Under the pieces are notes generated by a model. It was not told where the DNA came from. It made no database searches and saw only the letters and a list, made by a program, of their open reading frames with translations. A stretch of 40,320 nt of DNA from an uncultured bacterium (GTDB lineage: Bacteria; Chlamydiota; Chlamydiia; Chlamydiales; SM23-39), in NCBI GenBank assembly GCA_964618335.1, contig CAZTYI010000003.1, positions 1 through 40,320 of the forward strand, written 5' to 3'. Each line of letters begins with the position of its first letter. Position 1 is the first letter of the stretch. Below, in pieces: positions 33,767-40,320 of the stretch. The translations under genes were made by a program, and so were the position numbers.

Positions 33767-35425
33767 TTAACTCTTATCTTCGCCAATCAGTGCATCGCTA
33801 ATGAGCAGCATGCTGCCGGTAGAGACAGCGTGGATCAGCGAATTTTTAACAACTTTAACGGGATCGATAATGCCGGCTTTTAAAAGATCTTCTATTTTTT
33901 CAGCTTCGACGTTAAAGCCCATGTTTTTATTTTGATCATTCAGAATTCTTTCTAAAAAAAGATGCGGATCGATACCACTATTCTGCATTAAAATTTTTGC
34001 TGGTTCTAAAAGAGCTTTTTGCAAAATCTTGATCCCGATGAGTTCTTCTTCGTTGGTTTCTGCTTTTTTGTCTGATTTTTTAGACGTAGTTTTTTCTATC
34101 TTCTTGTCTATTTTTGACTTTTTTTCTGTCAGAATAAGTTTTTCTAGCTCCGTAGAGGCTCGTAAAAGGCTCACTCCTCCTCCAGCTACAATGCCCTCTT
34201 CTAAAGCAGCTCTAGTCGCTGCTAAACTGTCTTCAAAGATATTTTTTTTATCTTTCAGTTCAGGATCGCTGCCAGCACCTACTCGAATAATAGCCACACC
34301 GCCTTTGAGTTTGGCTTTTCTCTTCTCTAGCTTTTCTTTATCATAGGCATTAGTACTGTTTTCGCTGGCTTTAGCAATTTCTAAAATTCTTTTTTCAACA
34401 GCTTCTTTGTGGCCATTGCCATCGATAAAAGTAGTTGTATCTTTACTGATGAAAACTTTTTGAGCTTTACCTAAATCGCTAAGAATAGCTTTGGTGATAG
34501 TCAGTCCTTTTTCTTCACTATAAAAAGTTCCTCCAGTCAAAATAGCGATATCTTCTAAAACAGCCTTTCTCTCATCTCCAAACGAGGGAGCTTTAATCGC
34601 CGCTACTTTTAAAATCCCTTTAAGCTTGTTAATCACTAAAGCAGCTAGTGCATCGCCTTCGAGATCTTCAGCGATAATCAGCAGTTCTGAACCGATAGCG
34701 GAGACATTTTGTAAAATAGATAGAAGATCATGCACTGAGCTAATTTTTTTATCGGTGATTAAGATATAGGGGTTGTTCATTTCCACAGTTAATTTTTCTA
34801 AATTAGTACAAAAATAGGGACTGATATATCCGCGCTCTATTTCCATACCTTCGACTAATTCTATTTTAGTTTCCAAACCCTTGGCTTCTTCAATTGAAAT
34901 GACCCCATCTTTGCCGACTTTTTGAAAACAGCTAGCAATAATTGATCCGATTTCTTGATTGCCTTTAGCTGAGACAGTAGCGATGTTTTTGGTTTCTTGT
35001 TCACTCTTGACCGGCAAAGCCAAAGCCTTGATAGCTTTGAGTGCTGTTTCCAGTCCTTTTTCTAACCCTTTTTTAATAAAAACAGGACTGGCTCCTCCAG
35101 CGATATTTTTTAGTCCCTCTTTAACTAAAGCAGACATGATTACTAAGCCGGTAGTAATTCCATCGCCGGTATTTTCTTTGATTTTGGCGCTCATTGACTG
35201 AGCTAACTGAACAGCTAGATTTTCAAACTGGTCTCTTAGTTCTATTTCATCAATAATATGATTACTGTCAGAAGTGATTTTAGGAGCTCCGATGGTTCTG
35301 CTTAAAGCAACATGCCTCCCTTTCGGTCCCAGAGTAATATTGATGGTCTCAGAGAGTTTGTCGATGCCATCTGAGAGTTTTAGCCTGGCTTCTTCATCAA
35401 AAACTAAAACTTTAGCGCTGCCCAT
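33767..35425 (-). CDS. groEL: divergent chaperonin GroEL paralog without adjacent groES
   Basis: TLGPKGR, GDGITT, VGKDGVISIEE, GYISPYF, KAPSFGDERK, GGVAIIRVGA, EEGIVAGGG, GIIDPVKVV; no GGM tail. Confidence 0.93.
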   Translation of the reverse strand: MGSAKVLVFDEEARLKLSDGIDKLSETINITLGPKGRHVALSRTIGAPKITSDSNHIIDEIELRDQFENLAVQLAQSMSAKIKENTGDGITTGLVIMSALVKEGLKNIAGGASPVFIKKGLEKGLETALKAIKALALPVKSEQETKNIATVSAKGNQEIGSIIASCFQKVGKDGVISIEEAKGLETKIELVEGMEIERGYISPYFCTNLEKLTVEMNNPYILITDKKISSVHDLLSILQNVSAIGSELLIIAEDLEGDALAALVINKLKGILKVAAIKAPSFGDERKAVLEDIAILTGGTFYSEEKGLTITKAILSDLGKAQKVFISKDTTTFIDGNGHKEAVEKRILEIAKASENSTNAYDKEKLEKRKAKLKGGVAIIRVGAGSDPELKDKKNIFEDSLAATRAALEEGIVAGGGVSLLRASTELEKLILTEKKSKIDKKIEKTTSKKSDKKAETNEEELIGIKILQKALLEPAKILMQNSGIDPHLFLERILNDQNKNMGFNVEAEKIEDLLKAGIIDPVKVVKNSLIHAVSTGSMLLISDALIGEDKS

Positions 35426-35658: not shown

Positions 35659-35736
35659 AAATGGTTTAAATTTAACTTGTGTTATTTAAACCATTTGACT
35701 CAAAAAAACACTTTGAGTTAAAATAGAGTCAAATGG
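35659..35736 (+). promoter_or_regulatory. promoter with interlocking inverted repeats (putative operators) for the Schlafen-like gene
   Basis: 13-bp IR AAATGGTTTAAAT(35659-71)/ATTTAAACCATTT(35684-96); 11-bp IR CCATTTGACTC(35691-701)/GAGTCAAATGG(35726-36); TTGACT-18 bp-TAAAAT. Confidence 0.65.
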
Positions 35737-37091
35737 AGATGATACATATGAGATATCCAGGGGCAGAGTCATCTATCTTAGAGTTTAAAAGAGAGCTTCC
35801 CAAAAATGATCAGATTATCAGAACAATCATAGGTTTTTGCAACCAAAATGGAGGGAAGTTAATCATTGGCATTTCCGATAATGGTGAAATTGAAGGGCTT
35901 AACATCAAAGATTTGGAGCATGCTTTGAATTCAATGGAAAAAGCAATTTTTGAGGCGACCTATCCTCCGATTATTCCTCGTATTTTTTCCAGACGATTTG
36001 AAGAAAAAAATGTACTTGAAATAGAAGTCTCTTCTGGAATGAGTAAGCCTTATTATCGTAAATCAGAAGGCAAAGAAAGAGGTACTTATATACGCCTTGG
36101 GCGAAGTACTTTACGAGCCACCTTCGAATTGATCAAAGAACTCCAATGGCAATCAAGCGGGCTTTCCTTTGAGACAATGCCTCAGTATCAAGCAAATGAG
36201 GAAGAGATTGATCTAAAAAAATTCAGCCATTTCTTAGGGATTAGAAAAAATAAAGGTAAGGCTGAATCAAGTAAGACTATTCTTATGGCTTATAATTTGA
36301 TTTTAGAAGAGCATTCTAAAACCTATCCAACAGCAGCAGGACTTTTGCTTTTTGGAGAAAATCCTCAGAAACTATTGAGCGAAGCGATGATCATCTGCTC
36401 TCATTTTCGCGGAATCGCTGGACGCGAAGCTCTTGCTACCATTGACTGTGAAGGAGATCTTTTCAATCAGTTTCATCAAGCAGAAGATTTTATCTTAAGC
36501 CGGCTTTCGAGTTCTTATACAATTCAGTCATCAAGACGCTCTGAATTATTGGAAATTCCTAAAATTGCCATACGCGAAGCTCTATTAAATGCAATTGTCC
36601 ATCGTAATTATCATCTTAAGGCACCAACTAAAATCGCTATTTATGAAAATAGGATTGAGATCTTCAGTCCTGGTCAATTTCCTGGTCCGTTAGATTTAAA
36701 CAATCTAAGAGCTGGAATTACTTATCTTCGTAATCCAGTAATATGCAAAATTTTTCGTGAAGCTGGATATGTAGAGAAAATTGGATCAGGACTGATTGCG
36801 ATTTTAGATTCCTATGAAAAACAAAATTTAGTTGATCCTCAGCTAATCGAAGGCGAAAATTATGTTAAATGTATTCTTCCTAGAGTCAAAAAACAAAAAA
36901 AATCAATGAACGATTCTGAGAAAATTTTAGCATTATTTGATATATATCCTGAGATAACCCTAGATCAAATTCAGAATGTCTTGTCAGTTTCTCGAACTAC
37001 TGCAACTCGTCGTATAAGCAAATTGATTAGTTTAGGAAAAGTCGTTCGAATTGGTAAAACACGATCAACTCGCTTCTGCCGTTTATCCTGA
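35733..37091 (+). CDS. Schlafen/AlbA_2 domain + HATPase_c_4 (RecG C-terminal-like) + winged-HTH protein
   Basis: ESSILEFK, F.N.NGGKLIIGISD.G, YIRLG, T.AGLLLFG, REALLNAIVHRNY, IEIFSPG, RNPVI..IF, VEKIGSG, C-terminal HTH; alternative start ATG 35748 after GGAG. Confidence 0.85.
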   Translation: MEMIHMRYPGAESSILEFKRELPKNDQIIRTIIGFCNQNGGKLIIGISDNGEIEGLNIKDLEHALNSMEKAIFEATYPPIIPRIFSRRFEEKNVLEIEVSSGMSKPYYRKSEGKERGTYIRLGRSTLRATFELIKELQWQSSGLSFETMPQYQANEEEIDLKKFSHFLGIRKNKGKAESSKTILMAYNLILEEHSKTYPTAAGLLLFGENPQKLLSEAMIICSHFRGIAGREALATIDCEGDLFNQFHQAEDFILSRLSSSYTIQSSRRSELLEIPKIAIREALLNAIVHRNYHLKAPTKIAIYENRIEIFSPGQFPGPLDLNNLRAGITYLRNPVICKIFREAGYVEKIGSGLIAILDSYEKQNLVDPQLIEGENYVKCILPRVKKQKKSMNDSEKILALFDIYPEITLDQIQNVLSVSRTTATRRISKLISLGKVVRIGKTRSTRFCRLS

Positions 37092-37192: not shown

Positions 37193-38008
37193 TCAAAGGC
37201 TTTTTTTATAAAGCACATTTTTCTTCGTCTTCAAAATCTTCGCTGCCAGTTTCAGAGCTTCTTTATTAGTTAAAGAAAACTTCTCTTTAAGAATATTTAA
37301 CAGCTCTTCCAGCTCGATGTTTTCATTTTCCAAAGGATATTCTCTTTCTTCGATCAGCAGTACAATTTCGCCTTTCAGCGGATGATTAGCATCAGAAAAA
37401 TATTCAATCAGTTCTTCAGCAGTGCCTTGCACAGACTCTTCAAACACTTTAGTCATTTCTCTAACTACCGATATTTTTCTTTCGGGATCTAGTTTTTTCA
37501 AAAGTTTTAAAGATGCAATCAACCGATGAGGTGATTCAAAAGCAATCGAAGTTCCGCTGTAAGAAAGCATTTGTAAAATTTGTTTTTTTAATTCTCCAGC
37601 CTTTCTTTTTAAAAACCCTCTGAACTGAAAAGGTATGCTTTGAAAGCCAGAAAGTACTAATGCATTAATAGGACTGCAAGCTCCAGGCAATGCAGTGAAG
37701 GGCAGTTTTTGTTTGATACAGGCTTGTACTAAGCTTTCTCCTGGATCAGAGATCAATGGGGTTCCTGCATCAGACAAAAGAGCGATGTTTTTATCTGCTT
37801 TAAGATCAGCTAGAATGTTTGCTTCTTTTTTTTGTTCAGAGAATTTTTCAAAGCTAATGCATTTTTTAGAAATTTTGAAATGTGAAAGTAAAATTTGAGT
37901 TTTGCGGGTATCTTCAGCTAATACGTAATCGCAGGATTTTAGAATGGTTAGAGCTCTCAGTGTGATGTCTTCTAAGTTTCCGATTGGAGTAGCGATCAGG
38001 TATAGCAT
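37193..38008 (-). CDS. rsmI: 16S rRNA (cytidine1402-2'-O)-methyltransferase
   Basis: MLYLIATPIGNLEDIT.RA, AEDTR, SDAGTPLISDPG, FESPHR, REMTK.FEE, KGEIVL. Confidence 0.97.
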   Translation of the reverse strand: MLYLIATPIGNLEDITLRALTILKSCDYVLAEDTRKTQILLSHFKISKKCISFEKFSEQKKEANILADLKADKNIALLSDAGTPLISDPGESLVQACIKQKLPFTALPGACSPINALVLSGFQSIPFQFRGFLKRKAGELKKQILQMLSYSGTSIAFESPHRLIASLKLLKKLDPERKISVVREMTKVFEESVQGTAEELIEYFSDANHPLKGEIVLLIEEREYPLENENIELEELLNILKEKFSLTNKEALKLAAKILKTKKNVLYKKSL

Positions 38009-38084
38009 AAATATGGTCTTAATTATCTAGCGCACAAAACTAAAAGCATTTCCGTTCATTTTAATAAAATAAATTTTTGAAAAA

Positions 38085-38155
38085 AGGTGGCACCCGGATT
38101 TGAACCGGGGATGGAAGTTTTGCAAACTTCTGCCTTACCGCTTGGCTATACCACC
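38085..38155 (-). tRNA. tRNA-Cys (GCA), CCA not encoded
   Basis: GGTGGTATAGCCAAGCGGTAAGGCAGAAGTTTGCAAAACTTCCATCCCCGGTTCAAATCCGGGTGCCACCT; U73 discriminator followed by a T-run. Confidence 0.97.
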
Positions 38156-38225
38156 TGATTGACCTAGCTCTCTTGTTAGCTAAACTAGCTTGTTGGCTAG
38201 GTTAACTTAACCTTTTAGCTATAGT

Positions 38226-38254
38226 ATTATGGGTGATTTTTTAAAAATAAGCAA
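38226..38254 (-). promoter_or_regulatory. promoter of tRNA-Cys
   Basis: TTGCTT(38254-49)-17 bp-CATAAT(38231-26); the ~60-nt leader contains an ACCTAGC/GCTAGGT inverted repeat. Confidence 0.6.
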
Positions 38255-38435
38255 ATGGTTATTTTTGGGATATTATTAGGTTTGAATTGTTGATAAGAGG
38301 GTATTAATAGGTAAAGTTTTTTTAAAAAATGGGAAGATGTGGGGAATGAGGAAGGGGCAAGGATAAGAGTTTGGGGAGTTGTTTTTAGGGTTTTGGGGAG
38401 GCTGTGTTTTGTTTTTATTTGGGAGGTGGGGGAGT

Positions 38436-40320
38436 TTATTTTTTTCTTTTTCTTCTTTTTTGTTGTTCTGTTGCTCTTGTTGTTTTTTCTGCCATTTTTG
38501 CTCTTATGTCTTTTTGTTGTTCTGCGCTTAATGCTGCTTCTGCTCTTTTTAATTCTTGCGCTGCTTCTGCTCTAGCTTGTTCTGTTGCTTTTGCTTTTGC
38601 TACTGCTTTTGCTCTTGCTACTGTATTTTTTTCTTTCTTTCCTTTTTGTTGGTTTAATTGTCGTAGTTCTGCTTGTGCAATAGTATTTGCATCGATTGTT
38701 GTTTTTAGTTTTGCTTTTGCTTCTGTAACTGCATTCTGTGCTGTTTGTAGTGGTGTTAATGGTTGAGCTCCTCCTTCTGGCGGTGGTGGTACTGGTCTTT
38801 CCCTTAAAGGAGGCGTATATCTTCCTGCTGTAGGGCTTTTGCCTCTTCTTTGTGGTGTAGGGGATGGATTTCTTGGATCTGCTGGTGGTGTTACTTCTAC
38901 TGCAAGTGTAGACGTTGTAGGTGAAAAACCTAGTACTAGAGGGCATTGTGTAGCTTTAATTCCTTGTGCTGTTAAAATTTCAGTTAAAACTTCTTGCGCA
39001 TTTTTATCTTTGCTGTTTTCGATAAAGTTAACTGTAGCATCATTATGCATTTCCCAACGATTGCCATTACGGACTAAAGAGAAAAAATGTCCGGGAACAC
39101 TGATAAGAATAGAATTTAAAACCATGTCTACTTTTAGACTTTCTTCTAAAGCACCTGCATCATTATGAGTATGAAAAGGAATGGTAATTCTATCAGCAAT
39201 AGTAGTTCCTGCAGGAACAGCTATAGAAAAACTATTAAGTTGTTGTGCTTCATTTAAAGCTAAGTAATCTTGTTGTTCGACATTGTCACTGTTTTCTGTT
39301 AATTGTTCAGGAAGGTTTTTTTGGGTATTTAATTTTTTTAGTGCTGCTTGATACTCTAAGTTACTATTTTGGAAATTGGTTGAATCGGTATGATAAAAAT
39401 TTCCTAATGAGGGAACATAACAAAATTGTTCTTTAACAGTTGAAAATCCATCTATCAATTCTTGAAGATTTAGTTCTACGCCTGGTTTATGAGGTAGATG
39501 CCAAACAAATGAAGTTGTTAGGGCTGGTTGTGTTAAAGGATTAGACCCGTTTTGGGTTGAAAGATATGTTCGTTGCTGTCCTAACGATACTGGATTATAT
39601 CTTAAGTTTTGAAAAATACATTCTAGAAATTTAGGCGCGTCATTAGGTTCATTAGGTTTAAAAGGTGTAATTTTTTCTTGGGAGGGGTTTGTTGTGTCGT
39701 TGATTAAGTTTAGTTTTTGGAAAAGAGCTTTTTGTAAGCTTTTAATTTTTTCTTGATCAGGCTCTGGTGCATGAAGTTGTTCATATAACTCGCGTAGTAT
39801 CTTTTTTAAATTTTTTTGCAAATTAGTATCATTATCGCGATCTTGGAATAATTCAATGGCATTTGGTTGGCTGAATAAAAAAGCAGTAGCAGCATTGGCA
39901 TAGCAGCTATTACTGTAATTTGGCAGACCGCTAAATGAAACTTTATTAGCAGCAATGCCTTCAATTTCTACGCCTGTTCTTTTAATAGCTGCTTCTGCTG
40001 TTGGTTTTTCTTGAAATTCCAAAGGAGCTTGGGTAGCAGTACCAGTAGTAGCAGTTCCTTCAGTTAAATTAAGTGTAGTAGTCTGTTGTAAAGGAAGAAG
40101 GGAAGCTCCTTCAAAAGTATGTAATGTTCCCATTAGCTCCATGACTTTTTGTGCAGATTCTAAATAAGCTGGATCACCTGGTTTTAATCCTTCAGCTATT
40201 TTATCGCCTCTTAAGAAAGTTACTCTGTAGTAAAAATCACCAACTTGTAATATTCCTTCGTTTGGATTTGTGATTTCAGAGGGTGTTTCTTCTACTGGGG
40301 TTGTTAGTTCTGGTGATATT
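38436..40320 (-). CDS. USP (peptidase C19)-like deubiquitinase domain protein, 5' end beyond the window; putative effector
   Basis: Cys box GLPNYSNSCYANA, NDAPKFL motif, His box GHFFSLVR...WEMHNDATV. The frame stays open upstream of 40142 to the window edge (..ISPELTTPVEETPSEITNPNEGILQVGDFYYRVTFLRGDKIAEGLKPGDPAYLESAQKV-MELMG..). Confidence 0.8.
   Translation of the reverse strand, partial: ISPELTTPVEETPSEITNPNEGILQVGDFYYRVTFLRGDKIAEGLKPGDPAYLESAQKVMELMGTLHTFEGASLLPLQQTTTLNLTEGTATTGTATQAPLEFQEKPTAEAAIKRTGVEIEGIAANKVSFSGLPNYSNSCYANAATAFLFSQPNAIELFQDRDNDTNLQKNLKKILRELYEQLHAPEPDQEKIKSLQKALFQKLNLINDTTNPSQEKITPFKPNEPNDAPKFLECIFQNLRYNPVSLGQQRTYLSTQNGSNPLTQPALTTSFVWHLPHKPGVELNLQELIDGFSTVKEQFCYVPSLGNFYHTDSTNFQNSNLEYQAALKKLNTQKNLPEQLTENSDNVEQQDYLALNEAQQLNSFSIAVPAGTTIADRITIPFHTHNDAGALEESLKVDMVLNSILISVPGHFFSLVRNGNRWEMHNDATVNFIENSKDKNAQEVLTEILTAQGIKATQCPLVLGFSPTTSTLAVEVTPPADPRNPSPTPQRRGKSPTAGRYTPPLRERPVPPPPEGGAQPLTPLQTAQNAVTEAKAKLKTTIDANTIAQAELRQLNQQKGKKEKNTVARAKAVAKAKATEQARAEAAQELKRAEAALSAEQQKDIRAKMAEKTTRATEQQKRRKRKK

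Follow-up and report, generated by a model that had tools for sequence, protein, structure and literature searches.

A strongly diverged USP-like protease gene next to rsmI, encoding a likely effector of an environmental lake-water chlamydia

Few ubiquitin-specific proteases (USPs) have been identified in bacteria; in the cited passages of a 2026 review they comprise TssM and SnUSP1-3 (PMC13720258). SnUSP1-3 of Simkania negevensis, an obligate intracellular bacterium, are large, presumed effector proteins that contain additional non-catalytic regions. They react with the ubiquitin (Ub) probe Ub-PA and cleave Ub-AMC and ubiquitin chains, and their Cys and His mutants are inactive; SnUSP2 can react with an ISG15 probe as well, and SnUSP3 hardly cleaves chains (Boll et al. 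2023, PMC10643670). TssM of Burkholderia is likewise an effector of the USP class that has diverged from the eukaryotic consensus; a large internal deletion has removed its Fingers subdomain, and a "Littlefinger" loop is used instead (PMC10719079). It prefers ester-linked ubiquitin (PMC13720258). USPL1 is a SUMO protease with a USP fold (PMC10719079), and putative USPs were noted in the amoeba symbiont Amoebophilus (PMC8831229). Here we describe a USP-like gene at the end of a 40,320-nucleotide stretch of DNA (hereafter the window) from a chlamydial metagenome-assembled genome (MAG) of 1.26 Mb, with 116 contigs and a completeness of 96.5%. The product is, in our judgement, probably a strongly diverged USP-family (MEROPS C19) cysteine protease that is likely to act as a secreted effector of an environmental lake-water chlamydia. 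The well-known ubiquitin-removing effectors ChlaDUB1/Cdu1 and Cdu2 of Chlamydia trachomatis are also chlamydial, but they belong to another clan and fold (adenain-like CE, Peptidase_C48-like).

Profile comparison indicates that the homology to the USP catalytic domain is solid and not a matter of chance. For this comparison a profile was built from 15 USP domains of other genomes of the order, with the window protein and its ortholog in G001 (another species of the same genus) left out. Residues 94-470 aligned to this profile by hhalign with a probability of 97.8% and an E value of 1.3e-12 over 262 columns, reaching from the Cys box to beyond the His box. In a local rerun, the real sequence gave E = 1.2e-13, compared with 0.56 for the reversed sequence and 0.14 for the best of 20 shuffles. 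In profile and structure searches the best matches are eukaryotic USP catalytic domains (USP12/46, Ubp8, USP2, USP7, USP14, USP28, and USP30). The nearest named clusters in the ESM Atlas are PF00443 clusters with scores of 0.90-0.93, which by the calibration of the tool count as a lead only.

Two further explanations bear on this match: that short motifs came together by chance, or that eukaryotic host DNA was mis-binned into a bacterial genome. The Pfam E value of just 0.0026 and the typically eukaryotic distribution of USPs speak for them, but both are highly improbable given the hhalign E values of 1e-12 to 1e-13 against 0.14 or worse in the controls. The gene, with ~36% G+C as in the rest of the window, lies on a 40-kb contig among bacterial neighbors (rsmI, a Cpn60 paralogue, heptosyltransferase, phosphoglucomutase, DnaX, PtsI, and HPr kinase), and its gene order is kept in three other genomes of the family. 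Within the reach of these tools, hhalign, its controls and the gene order rule out chance and mis-binning.

Close relatives are scarce, and the only one found is the G001 ortholog (E = 7.2e-15 in a genome search; E = 1.9e-16 and 30% identity by BLASTP). When the 357-residue domain was searched by phmmer against 1.84 billion cluster representatives, four matches were obtained at E ≤ 0.001, and the G001 ortholog was not among them. Two of the four, P0004 and P0005, are small true USPs (E = 1e-4 and 7e-4; PF00443 scores of 85.6 and 50.2 bits). The other two, P0002 (3694 residues) and P0003 (815 residues), were dismissed as tandem-repeat artefacts judging from their sequences. A word-index homolog search with residues 100-470 yielded none of 5257 candidates at E ≤ 0.01.

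The catalytic residues are in place. In an alignment of 19 sequences with USP domains, C139, G410, and H411 fall in invariant columns, while N134, N137, D227, W422, and D427 occupy columns that are at least 90% conserved; N426-D427 supplies the third catalytic position together with the conserved Asp. The Cys box follows the pattern GLxNxGNxCYxN and the His box the pattern GHY...W...ND..V, and the aromatic gatekeeper beside the catalytic His is retained as Phe (F412). The initial annotation of this DNA had proposed a USP/C19 domain with Cys, QQD-like, and His motifs in the right order and with the catalytic Cys, His, Asn/Asp and oxyanion Asn complete. The motifs and residues are borne out by the alignment columns and the homology by hhalign with its controls; with the Foldseek matches these support a papain-fold protease of the USP/C19 type. 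The residues then numbered C80, H352, and N367-D368 map exactly to C139, H411, and N426-D427 of the open frame. By analogy with the family, C139 would attack the (iso)peptide bond that follows the Gly-Gly at the C-terminus of ubiquitin or of a ubiquitin-like modifier (Ubl), and H411 would serve as the base, positioned by N426/D427. N134 would contribute to the oxyanion hole, and F412 would stand as the gatekeeper against the Gly-Gly tail.

Table 1. Coordinates of the USP-like gene, its parts, and the adjoining rsmI-like gene in the window
Feature	Residues	Positions	Strand	Remarks
USP-like open reading frame		38436..40319	(-)	627 codons + stop (38436-38438); 5' end open
N-terminal mini-domain	21-95	40035..40259	(-)	two beta-hairpins + helix
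USP (C19, PF00443-like) catalytic domain	128-462	38934..39938	(-)	Pfam UCH, hhalign, Foldseek
Cys box GLPNYSNSCYANA	131-143	39891..39929	(-)	C139 codon 39903-39905; oxyanion-type Asn = N134
Degenerate QQD box PNDAPKFL	225-232	39624..39647	(-)	D227, F231, L232 kept
His box GHFFSLVRNGNRWEMHNDATV	410-430	39030..39092	(-)	H411, gatekeeper F412, W422, N426-D427
Pro-rich linker	463-524	38748..38933	(-)	62 residues, 27% Pro, net charge +3
Ala/Lys/Gln/Glu-rich basic tail	525-627	38439..38747	(-)	103 residues, net charge +15, ends KRRKRKK
rsmI-like TP_methylase gene		37193..38008	(-)	PF00590, 106.7 bits; directly downstream of the USP-like gene

Compared with eukaryotic USPs, the window protein has the Cys, QQD, and His boxes in the identical order, but the finger region contains no zinc-ribbon cysteines, and the protein is bacterial with bacterial-type neighbors. 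Like TssM, it is a diverged bacterial member of the USP class. It does not belong with the fingerless USPs of the TssM type, because the region between the boxes has full length and hhalign aligns through it to finger-bearing order-mates; with a spacing of 184 residues from D227 to H411, there is room for a Fingers subdomain. In the case of SnUSP1-3, which we compared by their published description, a USP-type domain in a chlamydia-like bacterium likewise retains the canonical Cys/His site and the aromatic gatekeeper, the latter being used by Boll et al. as a criterion for a deubiquitinase (DUB) (PMC10643670). However, SnUSP1-3 are active in experiments and are credited there with "obvious similarity" to eukaryotic USPs, whereas the window protein falls below the Pfam cut-off and has no HxG and Gln motifs. 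It also differs from them in its N-terminal mini-domain and in carrying a basic C-terminal tail.

The neighborhood of the gene is shared with relatives. In G001, as in the window, the USP gene is immediately upstream of rsmI and has the same orientation. We inspected the gene order at nine USP loci of the same family (L005 and L032-L039) and found rsmI directly 3' of the USP gene in three of them (L005, L034, and L035, on G001:C14, G036:C4, and G004:C12); the lack of rsmI at the other loci does not amount to its absence, because some are cut by contig ends or have short flanks. With the window included, a USP gene adjoining rsmI is thus present in four genomes from three genera. The proteins of G001, G036, and G004 show the same arrangement as the window protein, namely a low-complexity N-terminus followed by a small N-terminal domain and the USP domain. 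The mini-domain is common to all four proteins (the resembling segments include those at L034 and L035), and no Pfam family matched it. The C-terminal ends differ, with no extension in G001 and ~370 extra residues in G004. The G004 gene (L035:608-3343 (-), G004:C12) encodes 912 residues, of which ~370 lie beyond the USP domain; a macro-type domain was considered for this extension and dropped, and no Pfam family matched it at E ≤ 0.01.

Although the locus is conserved, the USP-like gene itself evolves, by sequence comparison, much faster than its housekeeping neighbor, because the identity to G001 is ~30% for the USP-like protein and 68% for rsmI. No match to the G036 and G004 proteins was found by BLASTP at E ≤ 0.01. 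In a maximum-likelihood tree of 19 domains, the end branch of the window protein has a length of 3.64 changes per column, the median being 1.4. The window protein pairs with the G001 gene with a modest support of 86/72, a join of two long branches that may be false.

We also modeled residues 1-470 with AlphaFold2 (AF2), seeded by the 19-sequence USP alignment. The Cys-box helix and thumb (residues 131-200) and the His-box strands (residues 411-430) were modeled with predicted local distance difference test (pLDDT) values of 73-92 and 80-83, respectively, and the mini-domain with about 51-72; the predicted template modeling (pTM) score was 0.53. Foldseek returned 216 PDB matches at E ≤ 0.001 with a lowest E value of 2.7e-7. 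Among the matches listed, all were USP entries, including Ubp8 in SAGA, USP14, USP28, USP30, USP21, and USP1, as well as USP36, USP35, USP4/15, USP18, and USP2. The match 3jcr_V, a tri-snRNP entry, we take to be USP39. The structural alignments to eukaryotic USPs have ~10-14% identity.

Several observations weigh against an active USP-family protease. PF00443 (UCH) is the sole Pfam match (E = 0.0026, profile positions 2-241 of 254), and its 17.8 bits lie under the single-sequence gathering cut-off of 23.9, which is an operational and not a biochemical criterion. This Pfam search was one of the checks named in the initial annotation; in a six-frame search of the own genome, the gene scored 16.1 bits. 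A sequence search of the PDB with the protein alone gave no domain match, only low-complexity matches to the Pro-rich part. Within the motifs, both Gln of the QQD box are replaced, the first of which (Gln92) is invariant in 15 order-mates; A146 takes the place of a Gln after the Cys box that is likewise invariant in these 15; the HxG motif preceding the His box has lost its His and Gly, although both are invariant in 15/15 order-mates; and GHY is changed to GHF. In USPs, the HxG segment is a loop lining the Gly-Gly cleft. The AlphaFold and Foldseek check gave a similarly divided answer. The listed matches are all USPs, but the mean pLDDT of the model is only 56.8, the TM-scores to USP structures range from 0.29 to 0.60, and residues 241-380, where the Fingers would be expected, reach a pLDDT of only 32-48. 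Moreover, since USP domains were aligned to seed the model, Foldseek adds no independent evidence to that from sequence. Finally, the long branch fits an arms race and equally a relaxed constraint.

The same observations can be accommodated by a decaying or catalytically silent USP-fold protein, either a scaffold that binds ubiquitin or the product of a gene that drifts as selection relaxes. The score of 17.8 bits stands against 84-97 bits for the three other rsmI-adjoining genes (97.1 in G001, 84.5 in G036, and 96.1 in G004), residues invariant elsewhere have been lost (the three relatives retain both HxG and GHY), the branch is among the longest on the tree, and the central region is poorly modeled. 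We regard decay as rather unlikely, however, because the frame runs through 627 codons without a stop at ~36% G+C, the Cys, His, Asn/Asp, oxyanion Asn, and aromatic gatekeeper are all retained, and near-identical DNA occurs in contigs from four lake-water runs, for which few differences and no indels are listed. An active protease with a shifted substrate would explain the losses in another way. Its preferred substrate would not be lysine-linked ubiquitin but a host Ubl (SUMO, NEDD8, ISG15, or a protist-specific one) or ester-linked ubiquitin. The loss of the HxG motif in the segment before the catalytic His, and a central ubiquitin-recognition region that is the least conserved and the least confidently modeled, fit this explanation, and precedents exist in the ISG15-probe reaction of SnUSP2 and the weak chain cleavage of SnUSP3 (PMC10643670), the ester preference of TssM (PMC13720258), and the SUMO protease USPL1 (PMC10719079). 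We nevertheless hold such a shift to be unlikely, as the catalytic and gatekeeper residues are typical of ubiquitin proteases, no positive sign points to any specific Ubl, and most characterized USPs, the bacterial ones too, work on ubiquitin.

A secreted deubiquitinase effector is the best available reading, and it is one that we infer. The bacterium lacks endogenous ubiquitin but possesses a type III secretion system, and it would most likely export such a protein into its host, probably a protist. There, the protein would strip ubiquitin marks from the bacterial vacuole or from host targets, and its N-terminus, which is of low complexity, and its Pro-rich, basic tail at the C-terminus would probably serve secretion and localization. 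The secretion system is represented by one FHIPEP (SctV-type) gene on another contig of the genome (G000:C14, 760.4 bits), SctV being the one component searched for and the measure of a type III apparatus here. Together with the chlamydial relatives and the dependence of the bacterium on a host, this agrees with the host-associated lifestyle that had been proposed from the window.

More speculatively, the rsmI-adjoining USP could be an arms-race effector that has been re-targeted within the genus, with an altered cleft (HxG and Gln lost, the central region remodeled) directing it to a non-canonical modifier or linkage and the Pro-rich, strongly basic tail targeting the host nucleus or acidic membranes. 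We consider this a doubtful, distinctly improbable elaboration; if true, the tail ending KRRKRKK would make the protein a nucleus-directed chlamydial USP.

USP domains are far from rare in this group. Of 301 genomes sampled from the order, 201 have PF00443 above the cut-off; for the family the figure is 20 of 24, and none of 14 control genomes matched. The USPs of the order are often multicopy, with up to eight matches per genome, and often part of very large proteins with several domains; some lie at the C-terminal end of giant open frames of 3087, 2392, and 2248 residues (e.g., G059:C3, G059:C120, and G300:C77). As about two thirds of the sampled order genomes carry USP domains, the result suggests that USPs outnumber CE and OTU enzymes as the most common ubiquitin proteases of environmental chlamydiae. 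The cited passages of the DUB literature (PMC10643670 and PMC13720258) do not reflect this predominance. We found no paper stating the frequency of USP domains in chlamydiae, although supplementary tables of pangenome studies may list such domains; in the main text of Domman et al. 2014 (PMC4209131), the terms "USP", "UCH", and "ubiquitin-specific" never occur.

The strong novelty ascribed to the protein at first thus has to be given up, because USPs are widespread in the order and activity has already been demonstrated for those of Simkania negevensis. The gene is a fast-evolving copy of a protease that is common in environmental chlamydiae and not a new kind of enzyme. It adds one further, unusually diverged USP-type candidate effector for an environmental chlamydia, and the assignment is useful for annotation because Pfam alone would leave the protein "hypothetical". 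The gene also serves as a natural experiment on the extent of drift that a USP can undergo with its catalytic residues intact, and the rsmI-adjoining genes form a tractable set of diverging orthologs for studying the drivers of effector evolution. For specialists, the order-wide PF00443 result is of more value than the single gene.

In the own genome, no paralog was detected by PF00443 besides the gene itself, and tblastn gave only two weak matches (E = 0.71 and 6.4), both in unrelated open reading frames, so the paralog search recommended at the outset came back empty. A weak match to Peptidase_C48 (CE clan, ChlaDUB-like) is present in a 289-residue frame at G000:C1:29904-30218 (-), with 21.6 bits against a cut-off of 20.7, and is possibly a second ubiquitin or Ubl protease. 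The OTU family PF02338 had no match in the own genome, which is uninformative as the control genomes likewise had none.

The gene is incomplete in the assembly. The open reading frame runs off the contig end at 40320; since the window covers the whole of contig C3, the truncation is due to the contig end and not to the choice of window. The initial annotation had correctly seen that the frame stays open to the edge with more than 620 residues (627 were counted), but its span of 38930-40320 omitted the last 164 codons, which encode the Pro-rich linker and basic tail (38439-38929). The Met from which it numbered, at 40142, is residue 60 of the 627-residue frame. From the alignment, M60 is almost certainly not the true start codon, because the N-terminal module shared with the G001 ortholog lies upstream of it, the common sequence starting at residue 14. 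Probably ~100-150 N-terminal codons are absent from the contig: ~140 residues precede the shared mini-domain in the G001 ortholog, and the lake-water contigs of three of the four runs (X1, X3, and X4) extend past 40320, the overhangs measuring 50-70 bases. The missing part was not located in the own assembly, where the last 200 bases overlap no other contig, no contig-end open reading frame has a fitting composition, and the N-terminal part of the G001 ortholog finds no convincing match. The N-terminus of the G001 ortholog (L005:982-2604 (-), G001:C14) consists of short tandem peptide repeats and an acidic run, and it is broken by a run of N in that assembly. A repeat of this kind probably lies behind the break at the window's end.

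At the other end, the Pro-rich linker and the basic tail are both missing from the G001 ortholog, which ends shortly after the USP domain; on this comparison both are lineage-specific. Against NCBIfam, the basic tail gave a weak low-complexity TolA-like match and nothing else, and its DNA carries short imperfect tandem repeats. Two plus-strand open reading frames rich in Phe and Leu (78 and 120 residues, 38339-38766) are antisense shadows of the Lys/Ala/Glu-rich tail and not genes. A scan of 37900-38600 found no terminator, and the three promoter-like sites in this interval are all on the wrong strand.

Between rsmI and the Cpn60 paralogue, a 452-residue protein, putatively an ATP-dependent regulator that binds DNA, is encoded at 35733-37091 (+); its domains are Schlafen AlbA_2 (75.8 bits) and HATPase_c_4 (70.7 bits). 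The Cpn60 paralogue itself (33767-35425 (-)) is divergent (PF00118, 211 bits), and its best relatives are from a "Chlamydiae bacterium" MAG (53%) and a "Parachlamydiales bacterium" MAG (49%). Flavobacteriales/Vicingaceae MAGs (44%) follow next in the list, which may just reflect the pattern-based scan. The near-identical contigs of the four lake-water metagenome runs are of low depth (2-4). Their differences from the window include 38689 and 38695 in the basic tail (X2 and X4) and a cluster of five sites at 40247-40265 near the N-terminal end (X3), which suggests strain variants.

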